Source: Bacteroidota bacterium (GTDB lineage Bacteria; Bacteroidota; Bacteroidia; Bacteroidales; FEN-979). From it: a DNA stretch of 64,000 nucleotides. The position numbers were made by a program, and so were the translations under genes. Below are positions 4,328-63,519 of this stretch, piece by piece. Under the pieces are notes generated by a model. It saw only the letters and a list, made by a program, of their open reading frames with translations. It had not been told where the DNA came from and did no database searches. Every line of letters starts with the position of its first letter. The first letter of the stretch is position 1. The DNA lies in the NCBI GenBank assembly GCA_026391795.1, contig JAPLDI010000004.1:26068-90067 (forward strand). Direction: 5' to 3'.

Positions 4328-7300
4328 ATGTCCATTTCCGATTTTGCGATCAAACGCCCTGTTGCCTCCATCGTGATGAGCCTTGTCATTGTGCTTTTCG
4401 GGGTTGTGGGATATACTTTTCTGGGCGTCCGGCTCTATCCTGCCATCGACCCGCCGGTGATCAACGTACAGACAAACTATACCGGGGCCAGTGCTGAAGT
4501 CATTGAATCACAGATCACCGAACCGCTGGAAAAAGTCATCAACGGGATCGAGGGGATCAAATCCATTTCCTCTTCATCCTCAACAGGAAGCAGTAACCTC
4601 ACCGTGGAATTCAATGTGGGTGCCGATCTCGAAAAGGCAGCCAACGACGTCCGTGACAAAACCTCACAGGCAGCCCGTAACCTTCCACAGGATATTGACG
4701 CCCCGCCGGTGGTTACAAAAGCCGATGCTAACAGTGACCCGATCATCACGGTTTCCGTTCAGAGCACGATCATGAATGCCATGGAGCTGAGTGATTATGC
4801 CGAAAATGTGCTGCAGGAAAAGCTCCAGACGATACCCGGTGTAAGTTCCGTAGGTCTCTATGGTCAGAAAAGACCGGCCATGCGACTCTGGCTTGACCCC
4901 GACAAGATGGCGGCTTACGGAATCACGGCAGAAGATGTAAGCAGGGCCCTCGATAAGGAAAACGTGGAGCTTCCCGCAGGAAAAGTCAGGGGTTACAGCA
5001 CCGAACTTATTGTCAAAACCTTCGGAAGGCTTACCACTGAAAATGATTTTAATAACATCATCCTCCGGCAGACAAAAGACCAGATCATCCGCTTCAGCGA
5101 TATCGGGGAAGCCCTGCTCGGTCCTGAAGTCGAAGAAACCGGTGTAAAACTTAACGGCGCCGACGGCATCTCCCTTGCCCTGATCCCCCTGCCCGGGGCC
5201 AACGATATTGAGGTTGCCAATGAATTCTACAAGCGGTACAGTGAGATCCAGAAAGACCTTCCCAATGGAATAAAGCTGGCCATCGGGTATGATAAAACAA
5301 AATTTGTACGGCAGTCGGTGACCGATGTGGCGGAAACCCTGGCCATTGCCATTTCGCTGGTTGTACTGATCGTCTTTCTTTTTTTCCGTAACTGGGTGAT
5401 CGCACTCCGCCCGCTGATCGATATCCCGGTCTCGCTGATCGGTTCCTTTTTCATCATGTACATCTTCGGATTTTCCGTGAATGTGCTGACCATGCTGGCC
5501 ATCGTGCTGGCTACAGGCCTGGTGGTAGACGACGGAATTGTGGTGACCGAAAACATCTTCAAGAAGATCGAAAAGGGGATGGATAAATGGTCGGCAGCAC
5601 TTGCCGGTACGCGTGAAATCCTCTTTGCCGTTATTTCCACCTCCCTCACGCTTGCCATTGTTTTCATCCCTGTGATCTTTTTGTCGGGATTTACCGGCCG
5701 GTTGTTCCGCGAATTCGGGATCGTGGTGGCCGGGGCCGTGCTCATTTCGGCTTTTGTTTCACTCACGCTGACACCGGTGCTGAATGTAAAACTGGGCGGC
5801 AACATATCAAGACATTCCCGTTTTTACCGTGGCACGGAACCCTTCTTTGTGAACCTGGACAATGGCTATCGTAAGCTGCTCGGGCGTTTTATGGCCCGTA
5901 AATGGATCTCTTTTGTGATCCTGGGAGCCTGTCTCTTGTTAATCTTTTTCATCGGGAGAAGTTTAAAATCAGAACTGGCACCTCTGGAAGATCACAGCAT
6001 CATCCGGACCAGCCTCACGGCACCCGAAGGAACCGATTTTGATTATACTGAAAACCTGGTAAACCGTGTGGCGCAAATGGTCATGGACAGTGTGAACGAG
6101 GCCCGACTGGTCTTTGGAAGAACCTCACCGGGGTTTGGTGCTACCAGTACCAATTCGGGAGCCGTCCAGGTCTTTCTCACCGAACCCAACGAACGCAAGG
6201 CTACCCAGCAGCAGGTCTATGACAGGCTCGTTAAGTTGTATAAGAATTTCCCCGAAGCGAGGATCATCCCGAACCAGGAACAGACCATCACCACTTCGCT
6301 GGCCGGAGGTTCGCAGCTGCCGGTACAGTTCGTGATCCAGACACTGGATTTTGAAAAGATGCAGCGGTTCCTTCCTAAGTTTCTTGACGCAGCCAGGAAA
6401 GACAGCGTGTTCGGTAATGTGGATGTGAACCTGAAATTCAATAAGCCCGAACTGAACATCACGGTCGACCGGATGAAGGCGACCAACCTTGGCGTGAACG
6501 TACGGGATATTTCCAATACCCTGCAGTTTGCTTTCAGTGGACGCCGTTACGGCTATTTCCTGCGCAACGAAAAACAATATTTTGTGATCGGCCAGGTAAA
6601 CCGGGTCTCCCGGAGCGAACCTTCCGACATCACATCGCTCTATGTCAGGAGCAATTCCGGGAAACTGATCCAGCTGGATAACCTTGTTAAAATGGAGGAG
6701 AACAGTAATCCTCCGACCCTGTATCACTTCAACCGGTACAAATCAGCCACCGTTTCTGCCTCGCTCGCTCCGGGACGCACCCTGGGAGAAGGGATTGCCG
6801 AGATGCAGAAAATTTCCAAAAAGGTTCTTGATGAAACCTTTCATACCGACTTACTGGGACCTTCGCGGGATTTTGCCGAAAGCAGTTCGAACACTTCTTT
6901 TGCATTGATTCTGGCGCTGCTGCTGATTTACCTGATCCTGGCAGCACAGTTCGAAAGTTTCCGCGACCCGTTTATTATCATGCTAACGGTTCCGATGGCC
7001 ATTGCCGGCGCCCTGATCTCCCTGTGGGTATTCGGGCAAACCCTGAACATCTTTTCGGAGATCGGGATGATCATGCTGATCGGGATTGTTACGAAGAACG
7101 GGATCCTCATCGTGGAATTCTCAAACCAGAAGAGAAAGGCAGGACTGGGTAAGGCGGAAGCAGCCTTTGAGGCAGCTGCGGCAAGGCTGAGGCCGATCCT
7201 GATGACCTCGCTGGCAACGATTTTCGGTGCCATGCCCATTGCACTGGCACTTGGCGCAGGGGCACATAGCCGTATGTCGATGGGGATCGTTGTTGTGGGA

Positions 7301-14285: not shown

Positions 14286-14333
14286 TTTTTTTACCGCAAA
14301 GGGCGCGAAGTTCAATGCAAAGGACGCAGAGAG
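14286..14333. repeat. ACCGCAAAG-family module (F3)
   Basis: TTTTTTTACCGCAAAGGGCGCGAAGTTCAATGCAAAGGACGCAGAGAG. Confidence 0.85.
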
Positions 14334-14360
14334 AAAATACTGTCAATTATTCGAATGGTT

Positions 14361-14408
14361 AATGCCCATTTCCTAATACTAATGCCCAATACCTAATGCC
14401 CAATACCC
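14361..14408. repeat. AATGCCC/AATACCC-family repeat (F5), containing the MFS start codon
   Basis: AATGCCCATTTCCTAATACTAATGCCCAATACCTAATGCCCAATACCC. ATG 14396 lies inside a unit. Confidence 0.85.
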
Positions 14409-15595
14409 TTTGGAACCGGAACTTCACACTGCTTACGCTTTCCAACTTTTTCATGTGCAGCGCCTACTACTCGCTGATCTCAACACTTCCGGTATACATC
14501 TCAACAGAGCTCCATTCTTCAAAAAGTGTTGTCGGGCTGGTGCTTGCATCGTATATCGTAGCCTCGGTACTGGTGCGTCCCTTTGCCGGTTTCGGACTGG
14601 ATAAATTCGGAAGGAAGACGATCTTCATCGCCTCCCTTCTTCTTTATGCCCTGGTTTTTAACGGATACCTTGTTGCCTGGACGGTTGCCCTGATGGTGCT
14701 TGTACGTTTCACCCACGGGTTGACATGGGGACTGACCACAACGTCGAACTCCACGGTTGCTGTGGATATCATTCCTCCCGGAAAACGCGGACAGGGGATC
14801 GGGTATTTCGGGGTCTCCACAACCCTGGGAATGGCGCTCGGTCCGGTGATCGGGTCGTTCATTTTTGTACATGGCGGTTATTCTGCCATGTTTATCGCCG
14901 GATTCCTGATCAGCCTGGCCAGCATGGCCATGGCAGCATCCATGAAATATCACGACCATATTCCTTCGGGTTCCCTCGAATTCAGGTTTTCAACCCTGTT
15001 TGAGACCACTACGCTGCCTCCCTCTTTCAACCTGCTGCTTATCATGATCACCTATGGCGGACTGCTTTCGTTTGTGGCACTTTACGGACGCGAACTGGGA
15101 ATAGGCAACCCGGCAGGGTTTTTCCTGATCTATGCAACCGGCGTGATCGGCGCCAGGTTCGCGATGGGAAAATTTTTCGATATCCACGGGCCCCGGATGA
15201 TCCTGATCGTATGCCTGACTTTGCTCATTGCGGGTTTTCCCTTCCTTGCCCTCGTTAAAAATTCGTTCGGCTTTTACGCCTCAGCCGTAATCCTGGGTTT
15301 CGGCAACGGCGTCGTCTTCCCGACCTTCCAGGCCATGACCAACAACATGGTTTCGCAGAACCGCAGGGGAGCTGCCAATTCAACCCTTTTCACTGCCGTT
15401 GACATCGGCATGGGGACCGGGATGATTCTCGTAGGGACGCTTGCACAGCGCTTCTCCATCTCAGCTGCGTTTGCTGTCTGTTCGGGAATCTGTATTGCTG
15501 CATTATTGTTCTTTCTTTTTTTTACGATAAAATACTACGAGAAGAACAAGTTGAGTTCCCTTATCGAAGAAAGTGTAAAGGCAAGCATTGAATAA
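14396..15595 (+). CDS. MFS transporter
   Basis: 399 aa with about 12 TM helices and an N-terminal LWNRNFTLLTLSNF typical of the family. Confidence 0.8.
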   Translation: MPNTLWNRNFTLLTLSNFFMCSAYYSLISTLPVYISTELHSSKSVVGLVLASYIVASVLVRPFAGFGLDKFGRKTIFIASLLLYALVFNGYLVAWTVALMVLVRFTHGLTWGLTTTSNSTVAVDIIPPGKRGQGIGYFGVSTTLGMALGPVIGSFIFVHGGYSAMFIAGFLISLASMAMAASMKYHDHIPSGSLEFRFSTLFETTTLPPSFNLLLIMITYGGLLSFVALYGRELGIGNPAGFFLIYATGVIGARFAMGKFFDIHGPRMILIVCLTLLIAGFPFLALVKNSFGFYASAVILGFGNGVVFPTFQAMTNNMVSQNRRGAANSTLFTAVDIGMGTGMILVGTLAQRFSISAAFAVCSGICIAALLFFLFFTIKYYEKNKLSSLIEESVKASIE

Positions 15596-21086: not shown

Positions 21087-21130
21087 TCAGCTGATGAGCT
21101 GGCGAGTTGCTGAGCTGGTGAGCTGATGGG
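21087..21130. repeat. CTGATGAG-family octamer array (F1) abutting a stop codon
   Basis: TCAGCTGATGAGCTGGCGAGTTGCTGAGCTGGTGAGCTGATGGG directly follows TAG at 21084-21086. Confidence 0.9.
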
Positions 21131-21162
21131 TTAATAATAAATGGCGAAAGGTTTTTTGTCAG

Positions 21163-21209
21163 CCTTTGCGTGCTTTGCTATAACCTTTGCGAACTTTGCG
21201 GTTAAAAAA
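21163..21209. repeat. CTTTGCGGTTAA-family module (F3, reverse orientation)
   Basis: CCTTTGCGTGCTTTGCTATAACCTTTGCGAACTTTGCGGTTAAAAAA. Confidence 0.85.
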
Positions 21210-21284
21210 CAAGAAGGAAAATAGAGGTTCCCTGATTTACGATCTTGCGGTTTATGGAATAATTCTTACCTTCGCCTGTACATT

Positions 21285-59349: not shown

Positions 59350-60216
59350 GTGACGCGAAAAACCAAACATCATAAATTGCTTTTTAACCTACATACACAT
59401 TCTAATTTCAGTGACGGATCTTCCGATCCGGAAGATTATATCAAAGAGGCCGTTTCCCAGGGTTTTGACAGCCTGGGCTTTTCCGACCATTCCCCTGTTC
59501 CCTTTGAAAACAAGTTCGCCATCCCGCAGGAAAGCCTTGACGAATATGTTGATACGATTCTTGCATTAAAGAAAAAATATCCCTCCTTATCCATTCTTCT
59601 AGCCTTCGAGGTTGATTATATCCCCGGGTTGACCCAGCCGTTTGAATTATATCGCAAAACATATGCTCTCGATTACCTCATCGGCTCTGTTCATCTTGTA
59701 AAAAATGAAGCTTCGGGCAAACTCTGGTTCATTGATGGACCCGATATCTCCATTTATGATAACGGGCTGAAGGAGATCTTCTCAGGAGACGCGGGACTGG
59801 CGGTAACTGCCTATTACCGGCAGTTACAGGAGATGATCTCCACACAGAAACCGGATATTATAGGTCACCTTGACAAGATCAAGATGTACAACCGTGACCG
59901 GTTTTTCTCAGAGCAGGAGCCCTGGTATGGAAAACTGGTGGAAGAGACACTTGATCTTGCGGCCGGCACAGGAAGCGTGATTGAGGTTAATACCCGCGGC
60001 ATCTACAAAAAAAGGTCGGAAACCCTTTTCCCCGGACCGGAAATCCTGAAAAAAATCCGCCTGCGTAACATCCCTGTTACGATTACATCCGATGCGCATA
60101 AGCCCCATGAGTTGTCGCTGGGTTTCGGCGAGGCAGCAAAAATCTTACTGAATCTCGGGTTTAAATCAACCTGGTCAAAAGTTGCCGGGGGGTGGAAGGA
60201 AGTTGGATTGGACTAA
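59350..60216 (+). CDS. PHP-family histidinol-phosphatase-like protein (HisJ family)
   Basis: LHTHSNFSDGS metal motif, later SDHSP, GSVHL, IGHLD and TSDAH. GTG start. Confidence 0.75.
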   Translation: MTRKTKHHKLLFNLHTHSNFSDGSSDPEDYIKEAVSQGFDSLGFSDHSPVPFENKFAIPQESLDEYVDTILALKKKYPSLSILLAFEVDYIPGLTQPFELYRKTYALDYLIGSVHLVKNEASGKLWFIDGPDISIYDNGLKEIFSGDAGLAVTAYYRQLQEMISTQKPDIIGHLDKIKMYNRDRFFSEQEPWYGKLVEETLDLAAGTGSVIEVNTRGIYKKRSETLFPGPEILKKIRLRNIPVTITSDAHKPHELSLGFGEAAKILLNLGFKSTWSKVAGGWKEVGLD

Positions 60217-60254
60217 AGCCTTTTCTTCTGTTCTGCCCCCGGACTTTCTTCTGC

Positions 60255-60274
60255 CCCCGGACTAAAGTCCGGGG
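60255..60274. terminator. Candidate bidirectional terminator hairpin between convergent genes
   Basis: CCCCGGAC-TAAA-GTCCGGGG. It is preceded by the direct repeat TTCTTCTG(TTC)TGCCCCCGGAC x2. Confidence 0.45.
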
Positions 60275-60278
60275 TAAT

Positions 60279-60749
60279 TCAAGATAACCCCTTCTGGTCT
60301 GATGGATTTGCCTGTTCTGCCTTCTTCATTTTTAATTCCATCCTGTAGTGCCCTATCCCGGCCTCAAAAAAGAGGTCGCCTTCGGTTACAAACCCGTTTC
60401 GTTCATAAAAGGGAACTGCCCGCAGCTGTGAATGCAGGTAAATGGCCTTTCCAAGCGGTATAACGTCCTTTAAGACCTCTTTCAGGATAATCCCCCCAAG
60501 TCCCCGGTTACGGAACTCCTGCAGCACCGCAAACCGTTCCAGCTTGATCCCCTTTTCCGTCTCCCGCCAGCGGGCAGTGGCAAGCGCTTTTCCGGCCATC
60601 ATTAGCAGGTAGTGGTGCGCTTCTTCTTCATGATCATATTCCAGGCCGGCATCAACGCCCTCCTCTTCCACAAATACCTTCTTGCGGATGGAGAAGGCCT
60701 GATCAGCCAGCTCTTGGTCGGAAAAACTAAATCTTTTTACTTCTGTCAT
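60279..60749 (-). CDS. GNAT-family N-acetyltransferase
   Basis: Acetyl-CoA motif QEFRNRGLGGIIL. 156 aa. Confidence 0.8.
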   Translation of the reverse strand: MTEVKRFSFSDQELADQAFSIRKKVFVEEEGVDAGLEYDHEEEAHHYLLMMAGKALATARWRETEKGIKLERFAVLQEFRNRGLGGIILKEVLKDVIPLGKAIYLHSQLRAVPFYERNGFVTEGDLFFEAGIGHYRMELKMKKAEQANPSDQKGLS

Positions 60750-60754
60750 AGGCT

Positions 60755-60834
60755 GGCTGATGAGCTGATGAGCTATCGGGTTGATGAGCCAAGAAATAAT
60801 CTCGTCAGCTCATCAACTCGCAAACTCGTCAGCT
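60755..60834. repeat. Compound F1 hairpin after the polyferredoxin stop
   Basis: GTTGATGAGC (60780-60789) pairs with GCTCATCAAC (60808-60817). The outer GCTGATGAG pairs with CTCGTCAGC. The TAG stop (60833-60835, - strand) lies in the CTAGCTGACGAG unit. Confidence 0.9.
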
Positions 60835-62476
60835 AGAATGGAAAATCATCCGTTGGTTTCATTGTTTTCTTGTTTTCCCCGATTTTCTTTTTCGGTTTTT
60901 GTGCTTTCCGGTGATAGGAATTTGCTTCCACGTAAATCGCTTTATCGGGTTTGGTCGGACAGGCATATTCACAGGCGCCGCATCCAACACAGATCTTTTC
61001 GTCTACCTTCGGAATGGTCAGCGTTCCCAGGTAAGGAACCATTTCAACTGCTTTTGTCGGACAATGTTCCGAACACGCCCCGCAGGCGGTGAATTTGGTG
61101 ACAACAATGCAGATGTTCTTGATGAATTTTGATGTTCCGATCTGCAGGGTTGCTTTCTGTTCCTTCGTTATTGGAAAGATTGCACCCGTGGGGCATACTT
61201 CCGAACATTTCACACATTCAAAATTACAATATTCGGCGTGAAAATCCATTTTGGGCTGGAACATCCCTGAAAGACCGAACTCCATGAAGGTTGGCTGGAG
61301 TACCTTTGTCGGACAAACGCTCACACAGAGGTGGCACGCGGTGCAATTGGCGGTATAATGCCAGATGCTGACCGAACCCGGCGGGGTTACCGGAACAGCA
61401 CTGATTCCCTGCGAACCGGCACTTTCCCCGAAAACAGTTTTCGCAGATAATAATGCGGTCGTGCCTAAAATAGTGGTCTTGAAAAAATTCCGTTTTGAAA
61501 GATTTGCGGGGAATTCGTTTTTACCGCAAAGGACGCTAAGGGCAGACAAAGGTCGCGAAGACATGTTGTTTGTCACTATAGTCCCTGCGTCCATTGCTTC
61601 TTCTTTGCGCTCTTTGCGGTTAAAAAAAGCTGTCTTGTACCCAATCCCCTTCTCCGGGCATGACGCAAAACAGTCATAACAGGCAACGCATCTCGAAAAA
61701 TCCACCTTTTTTTCTTTCACGTCGATGCAGGTTGACTTGCATGCTTTTACACAATTTCCACAGGATGTACATGCGGTTTCATCGATCCGAATCTTAAAAA
61801 ATGAAAACCTTGAAAAAATACCCAGCAGGGTGCCTGCAGGGCACAGGGTGTTGCAGTACCATCTCCCTTTATAAACTGCCAGGAAAATGATCAGGGTCAA
61901 AAAGAAAAATGAAAAAACGAGCGGCGGCCAGGAAAAGATTTTAACAGGAACCGAATATACGGAATAGGAATCGAACAGCTGAAAGATCCTCGACAGGAGA
62001 TTATTCCCCATGTAAACCAGCGGCCGTAAGAGGTTGGAAAAGATCTTCCCGGCAAGACTGTATGGATCAAGCAGGTTGATGAAAAAGATGGAAGAAAAAC
62101 AACAGACCAGTACCAGTAACCCTAAAACTGTATACCGGATGCCATTTTGCGGCCGGGTATACCGGATCCGATTTTTGATCCGTATTTTTTTGTTTATCCA
62201 GATGAAGATATCCTGCAGTGTGCCCAAAGGGCACACAGTGGAACAATAAACCCTTCCGAAAAAAAGGGTGATAAGGAGGATGAATAGAAATCCTGCTGCT
62301 GCAACGGAAATGACATCAATAAATTTAAGGAATGAGGGAATGAACTGAAGATACAACAGCGCCCGGATCAGCCGGGAGGCAAGAACTCCTGTAAAATCCA
62401 CAAAAACAAATACGGTAAAAAGAAAAAAGATCAGCGAAACAACAACCCTGATCTTTTTCAGGAATAAAAACTGCAT
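60833..62476 (-). CDS. Membrane polyferredoxin (NapH-like N-terminal half plus C-terminal multi-[4Fe-4S] half)
   Basis: TM helices with GRVYCSTVCPLGTLQD and GRWYCNTLCPAGTLLG. Cluster motifs CTSCGNCVKAC, CVACYDCFASCP, CTACHLCVSVCP, CVKCSEVCP, CGACSEHCP and CVGCGACEYACP. The two halves are joined by a repeat-encoded linker. Confidence 0.75.
   Translation of the reverse strand: MQFLFLKKIRVVVSLIFFLFTVFVFVDFTGVLASRLIRALLYLQFIPSFLKFIDVISVAAAGFLFILLITLFFGRVYCSTVCPLGTLQDIFIWINKKIRIKNRIRYTRPQNGIRYTVLGLLVLVCCFSSIFFINLLDPYSLAGKIFSNLLRPLVYMGNNLLSRIFQLFDSYSVYSVPVKIFSWPPLVFSFFFLTLIIFLAVYKGRWYCNTLCPAGTLLGIFSRFSFFKIRIDETACTSCGNCVKACKSTCIDVKEKKVDFSRCVACYDCFASCPEKGIGYKTAFFNRKERKEEAMDAGTIVTNNMSSRPLSALSVLCGKNEFPANLSKRNFFKTTILGTTALLSAKTVFGESAGSQGISAVPVTPPGSVSIWHYTANCTACHLCVSVCPTKVLQPTFMEFGLSGMFQPKMDFHAEYCNFECVKCSEVCPTGAIFPITKEQKATLQIGTSKFIKNICIVVTKFTACGACSEHCPTKAVEMVPYLGTLTIPKVDEKICVGCGACEYACPTKPDKAIYVEANSYHRKAQKPKKKIGENKKTMKPTDDFPF
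61518..61627. repeat. About 110-nt palindromic F3 element lying in-frame inside the polyferredoxin ORF
   Basis: Left end TTTTTACCGCAAAGGACGC. The right end's reverse complement is TTTTTAACCGCAAAGAGCGC. It encodes ...FFNRKERKEEAMDAGTIVTNNMSSRPLSALSVLCGKNEF... Confidence 0.85.
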
Positions 62477-62480
62477 CTCC

Positions 62481-63410
62481 TTACATTTTTATCCGGTTGA
62501 TGGACAGTTTTGTCAGGTCCATGCTGCCAATTCCGGCTTCACTGGCAAGTTTGATGTAGGAAACGTCTGCCGGCTCGCTTCCGAACATTTTGGCCGCCGC
62601 AGCATCGGCAGCAACAATGTCCTTTGAAAGGATCAGCGATTTCATCAGCACCACATCTTCTTCCGAAACCCCTCTCGGGCCGCGCTTTGTCATGACCCGG
62701 TAGGCATCCACAACATTCAGGTCGGGTTTTCGGTAACCGGCAAAATCGGCAATGCACTGGTTCAGGTCGTTTTTGTGCCAGTAACGGCGATCCCAGACGA
62801 TTCCCATGTGGTTTTTCATGGATGCTGTTATAATGGAGGATCCATGGCTTTTCAGAACGGGGACATTGATGAATACATCCGAGCTGAGGATCAGCTCATG
62901 GACCTTGGCTTCTTTAAGCTTCTTCCCGTTTTTCACGCTCACCTGCTGGTAATTCCCTTCCGAATTGCCCGGCACCAGTTTCCCGCCGGCATCCTTCACC
63001 GCTTTTTGAATGCCGCTGTTTTCGTAACATTTATTCCAGCTGTCGCAGGTATTGTCAAAAACATAAACCGTTTTTGCCCCTGCACTGTAACACTGTTCGA
63101 TGATCCGCTTCACCAGGTCGGGGTTGGTGTTGGCGCCACGTTCGGGGGAGGTATCCCACCCGATGTTGGGCTTCACCACAACGGTCTGGTTGGGCTTGAC
63201 AAACGCCTTCATACCTCCGAGCGAAGCTATCGCCTTGTCGAACATCTGGATCGGCTCGCCGTCTTTCACGGCAACGAGGTCATACCCTGCAGGCGGGCCG
63301 GGAGGTGGAACTTTTCCGGCAAAGATCTTTCGGAAATCCCCAAAGGTCATCGCAGCACCGGCAGCAACACCCGTAAGTATGCTTTTTTTGAAAAAATCTC
63401 TTCGGTCCAT
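62481..63410 (-). CDS. DUF362-domain protein with a twin-arginine (Tat) signal
   Basis: MDRRDFFKKSILTGVAAGAAMTF, and VVVKPNIGWDTSPERGANTNPDLV typical of DUF362 as I recall. It lies 4 nt upstream of the polyferredoxin gene. Confidence 0.7.
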   Translation of the reverse strand: MDRRDFFKKSILTGVAAGAAMTFGDFRKIFAGKVPPPGPPAGYDLVAVKDGEPIQMFDKAIASLGGMKAFVKPNQTVVVKPNIGWDTSPERGANTNPDLVKRIIEQCYSAGAKTVYVFDNTCDSWNKCYENSGIQKAVKDAGGKLVPGNSEGNYQQVSVKNGKKLKEAKVHELILSSDVFINVPVLKSHGSSIITASMKNHMGIVWDRRYWHKNDLNQCIADFAGYRKPDLNVVDAYRVMTKRGPRGVSEEDVVLMKSLILSKDIVAADAAAAKMFGSEPADVSYIKLASEAGIGSMDLTKLSINRIKM

Positions 63411-63519
63411 GAAAATATTTTTAGATCATAAAGGTACAAAATCATTCCGATATCTTCGATCTTTTACCTTTCGGGAGTCGCCGATTTTTGTTACTTTAGC
63501 TGGGCAAAAAAGAAACGGT

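Follow-up and report, generated by a model that had tools for sequence, protein, structure and literature searches.

The minus strand of a 64-kb window—the whole stretch of 64,000 nucleotides of Bacteroidota DNA analyzed here—encodes a polytopic polyferredoxin of 547 amino acids, and an earlier note on this DNA had pointed to a 110-nt palindrome at 61518–61627 within its open reading frame (ORF). Sequence, coordinates, and translation of this palindrome are all as described in that note. We read the locus as one gene for a NapH–NapG polyferredoxin that would be targeted by both the Sec and the Tat system, and that very probably carries an old in-frame insertion of a cargo-less, two-arm repeat in a cytoplasmic loop. 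The features of the locus are collected in Table 1.

The N-terminal module of the polyferredoxin is NapH-like: Pfam, a hydropathy profile, and a motif scan identify four strong transmembrane peaks, two Fer4_5 motifs, and CxxCxxCxxxC motifs at residues 236 and 263. The C-terminal module is NapG/NapF-like with four clusters, comprising CxxCxxCxxxC motifs at residues 378 and 496 and Fer4-type stretches at about residues 464–509. The NCBIfam profiles of NapH (residues 192–288), NapG (325–525), and NapF (363–508) match the protein below their family cutoffs, with the NapG alignment starting at profile position 8 and thus taking in the signal region. Fe–S motifs are hence present in both halves, and by homology those of the NapH-like half would face the cytoplasm and those of the four-cluster NapG-like half the outside. 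Polytopic polyferredoxins of this type have been described to bear five transmembrane domains (TMDs), a conserved twin-arginine motif directly before the weakly hydrophobic TMD5, and Fe–S clusters on both membrane sides (Tooke et al. 2017, PMC5449189). The family represents a fusion of NapH with the Tat-dependent NapG, and Sec and Tat cooperate in the insertion of a deltaproteobacterial member (PMC5449189). The window protein shares the four strong TMDs with NapH-type motifs, the weak TMD5, and the four-cluster NapG-like C-terminal domain; in a crude Kyte–Doolittle scan, which is not a topology prediction, TMD1–TMD4 peak at 2.55, 2.73, 2.55, and 2.25 and residues 331–349 at 1.03. It differs by a KR motif, by the lack of lysines after TMD5, and by a repeat-derived extension of 34–37 residues before the motif, and is about 37% identical to the deltaproteobacterial branch (L008). 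The K-R (61490–61495) in place of R-R is confined to the window and its closest relative P0001, with RR in all other aligned orthologues. Directly after TMD5 (residues 350–357), these same two proteins read G-E-S-A-G-S where most orthologues have G-E/G-K-K-E, which leaves the window protein without positive charges at this position. As both features reportedly matter for the Sec-to-Tat handover, this lineage may treat TMD5 differently. An AlphaFold2 model based on an alignment of 27 sequences (mean pLDDT 42, pTM 0.24, residues 281–547 all below 50) is uninformative on disorder of the insert.

On the minus strand, the palindromic element is translated as residues ~284–321 of this protein. Its end TTTTTACCGCAAAGGACGC lies at 61518–61536 on the plus strand, with the inverted partner at 61607–61625 on the minus strand; allowing for up to three mismatches, this 19-mer occurs at four sites in the window, as compared with 0.03 expected from shuffles. 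A repeat finder delimits two inverted arms of 39 nt (61518–61556 and 61587–61625) that are 72% complementary and spaced by 30 nt. The coding-strand RNA of the element is predicted to fold into a single long imperfect hairpin of −39.1 kcal/mol versus a shuffle mean of −27.2 (z −3.4), and none of 200 shuffles reaches an equal folding. An intrinsic terminator was considered and rejected, because the T's precede and the A's follow the hairpin on either strand; the terminator scan is blank at 61518–61627. A scan for sigma-70-type promoters—which does not model Bacteroidota promoters—likewise returned nothing at the element. Rfam 15 holds no match to it at E values up to 1, and the sole Rfam match across 60500–63500 is a chance snoRNA at 60763–60818 (E 0.1, 23 bits vs a gathering score of 50).

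The minus-strand ORF at 60833–62476 (547 aa) reads through the element without a stop, as ...FFNRKERKEEAMDAGTIVTNNMSSRPLSALSVLCGKNEF..., just as the earlier note had seen. The element is free of stop codons in three of its six frames, and hence its openness is in itself unremarkable. A sequencing error as the source of the open frame—a concern raised in the same note—is excluded by independent runs and assemblies: all sampled words of 61350–61800 are present in at least nine public DNA runs (three studies, freshwater and lake metagenomes), 61250–61900 is covered by four independent assemblies with no differences, no gaps, and no element-less variants, and the in-frame insert recurs in eight further assemblies of orthologues. 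None of the sampled words of the stretch was found in RNA runs from the same samples, which says nothing on transcripts.

Table 1 Features of the polyferredoxin locus and copies of the repeat family in the 64-kb window
Feature	Position	Strand	Evidence
Palindromic element, two arms, no cargo, ~110 nt	61518..61627	.	Inverted arms, hairpin, cassette-arm profile, missing from close orthologues
Arm 1 (3' arm in mRNA sense): TTTTTACCGCAAAG GACGCTAAG GGCAGACAAAG GTCGC	61518..61556	+	~9-nt sub-repeats, NNCGCAAAG type
Arm 2 (5' arm in mRNA sense): TTTTAACCGCAAAG AGCGCAAAG AAGAAGCAATG GACGC	61587..61625	-	Repeat finder, nhmmer
Apical loop region between the arms, contains ATG (M305, minus-strand 61562-61564)	61557..61586	.	
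Profile match, element arm 1	61518-61566	+	Cassette-arm profile (nhmmer), E 2.1e-06
Profile match, element arm 2	61626-61578	-	Cassette-arm profile (nhmmer), E 7.6e-07
Host gene, polytopic polyferredoxin, 547 aa	60833..62476	-	Pfam, NCBIfam, hydropathy, Cys motifs
Variable cytoplasmic linker, residues 281-327, last cytoplasmic Fe-S motif to Tat motif	61496..61636	-	
Internal Tat-type motif S-K-R-N-F-F-K, residues 327-333	61478..61498	-	Orthologue alignment
Predicted TMD5, residues 331-349, FFKTTILGTTALLSAKTVF	61430..61486	-	Weak hydropathy
Upstream operon partner, DUF362 protein, 309 aa	62481..63410	-	Ends 4 nt before polyferredoxin start
Intergenic single-arm copy of the repeat family	14287..14336	+	Cassette-arm profile, E 5.9e-10
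Intergenic single-arm copy of the repeat family, upstream of tRNA-like sequence	21160..21207	-	Cassette-arm profile, E 1.2e-10

The comparison with orthologues identifies the element as an insertion. About 34 extra residues are present in the window protein and in P0001, P0002, P0003, P0005, P0006, P0008, P0010, P0012, and P0013, whereas P0015, P0016, P0017, P0019, P0024, and P0026 (70–81% identity) are collinear with them except for the absence of exactly these residues. The linker that precedes the Tat motif comprises 46–51 residues in carriers versus 12–17 in element-free close orthologues. On the DNA level, codon alignments of the carriers (window, L001, L002, L010, L012, and L013–L016) read a T-run, AAC CGC AAA G..., ...C TTT GCG KT, and an A-run; empty alleles hold just a short A-rich stretch at the position of the element. 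A profile made from the first five copies detects each of them on both strands; elsewhere in the window, it recovers only two sites, the intergenic single arms at 14287–14336 and 21150–21211. A further copy of the family with different flanks is present in run X8. One of the two readings offered by the earlier note, an in-frame insertion into one gene in the manner of a Rickettsia palindromic element (RPE), is thus borne out both by the close orthologues that lack the ~34 residues and by the match of the DNA to an intergenic repeat family.

The insertion is an old one, passed on vertically within a clade of Bacteroidales from freshwater, peat, and wetlands. All nine carriers bear it at the same position and in the same orientation, with homologous junctions and a homologous apical loop sequence. 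Across these nine, DNA divergence in the insert correlates with that in the remainder of the gene (Mantel r 0.59, p 0.0008), with the insert having diverged 1.3–2.5 times more. In a bootstrapped neighbor-joining tree of the DNA, from which the linker was excluded, the carriers group together with the empty alleles L006 and L011, and the empty alleles L003, L004, and L017–L020 lie outside of it. The group of L006, L010, L011, and L012 has 100% bootstrap support, and that of L006, L010, and L011 has 90%. L006 and L011 are hence nested within the carriers, which makes them secondary losses; L006 retains GCGTTAAAAAAAAC, the right end of the element, and L011 the A-run only, which probably reflects two independent in-frame deletions, of 114 and 111 nt. 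Filled and empty alleles coexist, with the nested empty ones being secondary deletions. This tree, with one carrier clade and nested losses, replaced a patchy distribution with at least four losses that a neighbor-joining tree of the proteins had suggested. Farther out, L213 (P0030) and L214 (P0034), at 67–68% identity and with the same synteny, bear the left arm only, at the same position (TTCACGCAAAGGGCGCAAAG...). The junction variant TTCACGCAAAG (TTCACGC) is common to L001, L002, L013, L015, L016, L213, and L214. In the simplest history, a single insertion preceded the split of these lineages, some of which later lost the right arm and others the entire element.

The inserted DNA belongs to a widespread repeat family, whose end motif TTAACCGCAAAGNNCGCAAAG has 19 specified bases and, by our own arithmetic, about four expected chance matches in 596 Gb on both strands. 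It is found at at least 120 genome loci—in Flavobacterium, Pedobacter, Bacteroidales, Terriglobia, Verrucomicrobia, Planctomycetota, and Chloroflexota as well as in metagenome-assembled genomes (MAGs) of delta- and gammaproteobacteria and of cyanobacteria. The arms of the family end in TTAACC[G/A]CAAAG and consist of inverted ~9-nt C[G/A]CAAAG sub-repeats (consensus TATTTAACCGCAAAGAGCGCAAAGATTTTCGCAAAGATCGCAAAG), features that the window element shares. Pairs of inverted ends delimit elements of mostly 80–120 nt, with a tail at 460–471 nt that holds a gene: in the long elements L152 and L188, an ORF of 125 aa encodes a GxxExxY protein (TIGR04256, 1e-38; PF13366/PDDEXK_3, 1.5e-37). In these cassettes, arms with the ends TTAACCGCAAAG...CTTTGCGGTTAA frame the gene for this protein of the PD-(D/E)XK fold. 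The association was also assessed from the side of the gene, where it proved strong. Both flanks were available for 79 GxxExxY loci; in 53 of these, one flank holds two or more C[G/A]C[A/G][A/G]AG units and the opposite flank two or more inverted ones, as compared with none of 20,000 random 375-nt intervals drawn from the polyferredoxin loci and the window; the arms at these loci typically end in TTAACC[G/A]CAAAG. A profile of 78 cassette arms has exactly four significant matches in the window (Table 1). Moreover, an arms-only copy of ~105 nt (L111) shares its contig with a cassette (L231). With 30 nt between its arms and no GxxExxY ORF anywhere in the 64-kb window, the window element is a cargo-less derivative.

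A survey of 2012 lists the function of PF13366 as unknown and reports multiple transfers of the family between bacterial divisions. The literature found on GxxExxY, PF13366, and TIGR04256 contains no description of flanking arms, which is not proof of novelty; the link between arms and GxxExxY is the part of this analysis most likely to be new. The repeat family presumably is or was mobile, and GxxExxY might be what moves the arms. Taken further, the elements with CGCAAAG arms could be the nonautonomous form of undescribed, cross-phylum small mobile cassettes, in which a GxxExxY PD-(D/E)XK enzyme of ~125 aa recognizes the TTAACCGCAAAG hairpin ends and in which stop-poor sub-repeats of three codons allow persistence in permissive loops of essential proteins—a tentative proposal that we regard as possible and rather doubtful in its entirety. 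Among 134 other clusters of the family, no further in-gene copy is convincing. Ten of these clusters lie in long stop-free spans and were rejected, as the spans are spurious ORFs of GC-rich genomes or the elements lie just upstream of real starts. As separate observations, GxxExxY proteins 66–85% identical to a Bacteroidota one occur in MAGs labeled Pseudanabaena, Akkermansia, Treponema, Brocadiaceae, Elusimicrobiales, and Caldithrix (L215–L294), which reflects either recent horizontal transfer or bin contamination. A Flavobacteriaceae MAG (L110:1355–1547) holds three tandem 86-nt units, each ending in ...CTTTGCGNTCTTTGCGGTTAAAAA, so that the arm can also be amplified within a tandem array.

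The peptide encoded by the insert evolves almost neutrally: the mean pairwise differences at codon positions 1, 2, and 3 are 0.341, 0.250, and 0.355 in the insert versus 0.117, 0.053, and 0.322 in the rest of the gene. An open frame is required of it solely for the sake of the C-terminal module, which is encoded downstream. Eight of the nine carriers keep the folding of the hairpin (z −2.5 to −9.1), the exception being L016, whose left arm is partly deleted. RNAalifold on the alignment of the nine alleles yields 28 base pairs, six of these with double changes; covariation among the nine alleles does not rise above the shuffle control, the observed values being attained by 72, 34, and 67 of 500 shuffles. 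The paired changes (CGC to CAC and GCG to GTG) represent CpG transitions, which would hit the two arms of a palindrome alike even if selection played no part. Since covariation stays within shuffles and CpG transitions can explain the paired changes, active maintenance of the hairpin is suggestive only.

The question of one gene or two can be answered by the orthologues. A search across 5.8 billion proteins gave 5,741 relatives, with 120 matches listed, and among these 120 every protein not ended by a contig edge is a single chain of 513–608 aa with both halves. This includes sequences of Ignavibacteria and Marinilabiliales with 45–55% identity, which are without the element and have linkers of 13–19 residues. 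Split halves were found neither among the 120 listed matches nor at the related loci examined. R329 and F331 of the S-R-R-x-F-[FL]-K motif are invariant in the alignment of 27 sequences, also in the 45–55% identical element-free proteins. The alignment of orthologues, which the earlier note had proposed as a check, yields one protein with a linker extension in carriers only. The second reading of that note, in which the element fused two genes, is wrong, because the orthologues are single proteins even without the element, the Tat motif is conserved, and the architecture is published. The fusion of NapH and NapG is older than the element and unrelated to it; two joined units are present only in the deep-time sense of this ancient fusion (PMC5449189) and not as a product of the element. 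A recent fusion, with the element once intergenic between a napH-like and a napG-like gene and open by chance, would account for the halves matching different Nap subunits, for the Tat-type signal at the start of the second half, and for NapH and NapG being separate proteins in other organisms (PMC5449189). It is hardly credible, however, given that each complete listed orthologue is one protein—down to distant element-free ones with linkers of 12–19 residues—, that neither the 120 listed proteins nor the related loci examined include a split version, and that the fusion is a published, widespread architecture (PMC5449189). The Tat-like signal that the earlier note had recognized downstream of the element is real; it is, however, an old internal signal. 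Internal initiation at M305 (61562–61564), which would also or instead yield a NapG-like protein bearing a long Tat signal at its N-terminus, is very unlikely. In its favor are the in-frame location of this ATG, in the apical loop and 23 codons ahead of the KR motif, and the fact that Bacteroidota do not require a Shine–Dalgarno sequence. Against it, the ATG is not conserved in the other carriers—Ile in P0001, other residues in the remaining ones—, element-free orthologues have no such start, and the above scans show neither a sigma-70-type promoter nor a terminator at the element, with the limit that Bacteroidota promoters are not modeled.

Several points weigh against a single old insertion of a mobile repeat that has since been decaying neutrally. 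The topology and the Tat dependence would follow from homology to the MLMS-1 protein, the only one for which Tat-dependent insertion of TMD5 has been shown experimentally (PMC5449189), and the window protein departs from RR by its KR motif and is devoid of lysines after TMD5. That the outer empty clade is ancestral depends on a rooting with a bootstrap support of only 68%. Full copies end in TTAA...TTAA without a further direct repeat, and, TTAA being itself palindromic, no target-site duplication is definable; the empty alleles examined are deletions or too diverged to define a target site. The four assemblies of the window organism show no transposition event and no presence/absence polymorphism. 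GxxExxY has no demonstrated activity and is not a recognized transposase, and it is found nearby in only two of ~120 motif-selected loci—rare cargo from the side of the arms is as expected if arms-only copies greatly outnumber cassettes. Finally, stem columns vary by 0.216 as compared with 0.435 in the apical loop, 0.445 in internal loops, 0.364 in the surrounding linker, and 0.322 at third codon positions, some carriers have near-perfect hairpins (L012, z −9.1; L014, z −8.3), and the uniform CAC/GTG sub-type of L014 might stem from replacement or re-insertion. Pure neutral decay predicts neither the stem conservation nor the near-perfect hairpins.

Two further explanations draw on these last points. 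The linker might be a hot spot that has received several independent insertions or has been converted by other genomic copies: besides the uniform sub-type and near-perfect hairpin of L014, L012 has unique matched changes that perfect its stem, both sub-types occur as cassettes elsewhere, and unrelated repeat-like or hairpin DNA lies in the same linker of L021, L022, L023, and L030. We consider this rather improbable, since position, orientation, and a homologous apical loop are common to all nine carriers, the divergence of the insert tracks that of the gene, the TTCACGCAAAG variant is shared by seven loci including the two left-arm-only ones, and the other linkers are not confirmable as repeat families. 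Alternatively, the insert might have been co-opted, with the extra loop serving as a spacer or positive cluster before the Tat motif or the hairpin serving as a pause site before TMD5 or as a protein-binding site. Its retention across lineages with up to 24% difference in gene DNA would fit, as would stems that are more conserved than loops and third codon positions, a hairpin kept in eight of nine carriers, and the position in the Sec-to-Tat handover loop, which needs a minimum length (PMC5449189). We nevertheless regard co-option as unlikely: the insert has been lost at least twice with the gene otherwise intact, its peptide is almost without codon-position bias, covariation is not above shuffles, paired CpG transitions would arise symmetrically without selection, and an alignment anchored on cores inflates the apparent variability of loops.

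The odd DNA in the same linker of other lineages is likewise read in frame (L021:3850–3918, L022:2245–2352, L023:1959–2006, and L030:516–572). It comprises tandem heptamers GATCGCA/GATCACG in L021, a GACAGGTCACGACCTGTC hairpin in L022, and a CCCCCTCTCC-TTCA-GGAGAGGGGG hairpin in L030. A search for these four linkers as repeat families found no other copies in their short loci and few 13-mers shared with unrelated loci. Repeats in general may tend to settle in this linker.

For the single old insertion, the following course of events is the most likely one. A cargo-less two-arm copy landed long ago in the length-variable loop between the last cytoplasmic Fe–S motif and the internal twin-arginine motif before TMD5. 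The arms are presumably poor in stop codons because they are built of NNCGCAAAG-type sub-repeats of 9 nt, that is, of three codons, and the full protein is still made because the insert leaves the host frame open and its length is divisible by three. The loop is thereby extended by 34–37 residues, of which the first half is charged (RKERKEE) and the second mildly hydrophobic (LSALSVLCGK). With the C-terminal module being needed, surviving insertions would have to be a multiple of three with an open frame; in-frame deletions have since removed the insert partly or wholly in several lineages, and only such deletions should persist, because out-of-frame ones lose the C-terminal module. The loop presumably tolerates the insert, with length and sequence unconstrained beyond a minimum—for another dual Sec/Tat substrate, a minimum of eight residues has been reported (PMC5449189). 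Tolerance rather than function would thus explain its presence, and, related as it is to GxxExxY cassettes with the same arms, the element would work like a MITE (miniature transposable element with inverted repeats) or an RPE: selfish or neutral DNA in a permissive loop.

Among known systems, the element looks like an in-frame passenger of the RPE or MITE type, with the in-gene insertion appearing exceptional for its own family. RPEs—described by Ogata et al. in 2000 and 2002 and summarized in PMC10969869—are palindromes of ~100–150 bp without a transposase that lie in frame in functional genes, are translated in tolerated places, and are inherited, all of which resembles the window element. 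This comparison is one by description, and the host is a free-living Bacteroidales rather than Rickettsia. Furthermore, the arms of the window family consist of 9-nt CGCAAAG sub-repeats with TTAACC ends, its relatives carry GxxExxY, and nearly half of the RPE copies are located in ORFs versus none convincingly in the 134 other clusters of the window family. MITEs such as ERIC and Coxiella QMITE1/2 are small, noncoding, and mostly intergenic, bear terminal inverted repeats, occasionally fuse in frame with ORFs, and have larger gene-carrying relatives with the same ends (PMC10969869, PMC5896051). Correspondingly, the window element has 110 nt (MITEs about 50–500 bp), no transposase, and no frame other than that of its host gene; its ends TTTTTACCGCAAAG and CTTTGCGGTTAAAA are common to other copies; and the family is present as one full and two single-arm copies in the window and at at least 120 loci elsewhere. 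It differs in that the larger relatives encode a PD-(D/E)XK-fold protein of ~125 aa, not a recognized transposase, and in that its end motif is found across phyla, whereas most MITE families are narrow in host range. Repetitive extragenic palindromic (REP) elements and the bacterial interspersed mosaic elements (BIMEs) built from them share the intergenic palindromic repeats, the high copy number, and the capacity for hairpins. This assignment was rejected, as REPs measure 20–40 bp, have a GTAG or CGTC head, and are associated with RAYT (IS200/IS605-like), as compared with 110 nt, TTAACCGCAAAG ends, and GxxExxY for the window family (PMC3733652).

The layout of the GxxExxY cassettes recurs with other constituents in orthologous loci. 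In L001, L006, and L012, a PF05635 gene for a four-helix-bundle protein ('23S rRNA IVS protein') is framed by inverted arms of short tandem sub-repeats. The intervening sequences of 23S rRNA consist of such a small PF05635 gene framed by long inverted repeats and are tolerated inside an essential gene. Arm sequence (AATGAGT type), cargo, and type of host gene all differ from those of the window element, to which no link is shown. These genes lie downstream of the acetyltransferase (L001:3800–4330, L006:6060–6640, and L012:6120–6900), with arms of the AATGAGTAATGAGTAATTA... sub-repeat. L012 additionally bears a partial duplicate of the 3' end of the PF05635 gene plus an arm, and the window is without such a gene at the corresponding place.

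In annotations, this ORF is best kept whole, as a single gene for a polyferredoxin, with ~35 of its residues marked as repeat-derived. For protein biogenesis, the locus represents a natural experiment on loop length, in which the loop before the internal Tat motif tolerates an insert of 34–37 residues; relatives that differ only by the presence of the insert are ready constructs for the handover rules of Tooke et al. (PMC5449189). For mobile elements, the locus shows that reduced intracellular genomes are not the only ones in which palindromes insert in frame in the manner of RPEs. And for GxxExxY/PF13366, a multicopy and horizontally transferred family of unknown function, arms at about two-thirds of the sampled loci allow for a testable functional hypothesis—the same conserved inverted arms also exist as cargo-less elements of ~80–120 nt.

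As for the surroundings of the polyferredoxin gene, the DUF362 protein encoded upstream has its own canonical N-terminal Tat signal (MDRRDFFKK...), and the pair of both genes is kept in the orthologous loci examined; the DUF362 protein is probably the periplasmic redox partner of the NapG-like domain. The order dnaG/DUF362/polyferredoxin/acetyltransferase is conserved across these loci. In L010, the locus of P0003, an insertion sequence with a DDE_Tnp_1 transposase lies just downstream of the acetyltransferase gene (6012–7244); it is not present in the window or the other loci. The interval from the polyferredoxin stop to the acetyltransferase start (60755–60830) is occupied by a second, unrelated palindromic repeat with GCTGATGAGC-type sub-repeats, and a related copy at 21087–21130 lies beside the single-arm CGCAAAG copy near 21150. 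Directly after the other single-arm copy (14287–14336), short tandem repeats of the AATGCCCAATACCT type at 14340–14410 represent another sub-repeat family in the same gap. Between the convergent genes for a PHP-domain protein and the acetyltransferase, a duplicated TTCTGCCCCCGGACT motif at 60215–60275 forms a GC-rich hairpin (CCCCGGACTAAAGTCCGGGG), which is likely a bidirectional terminator.

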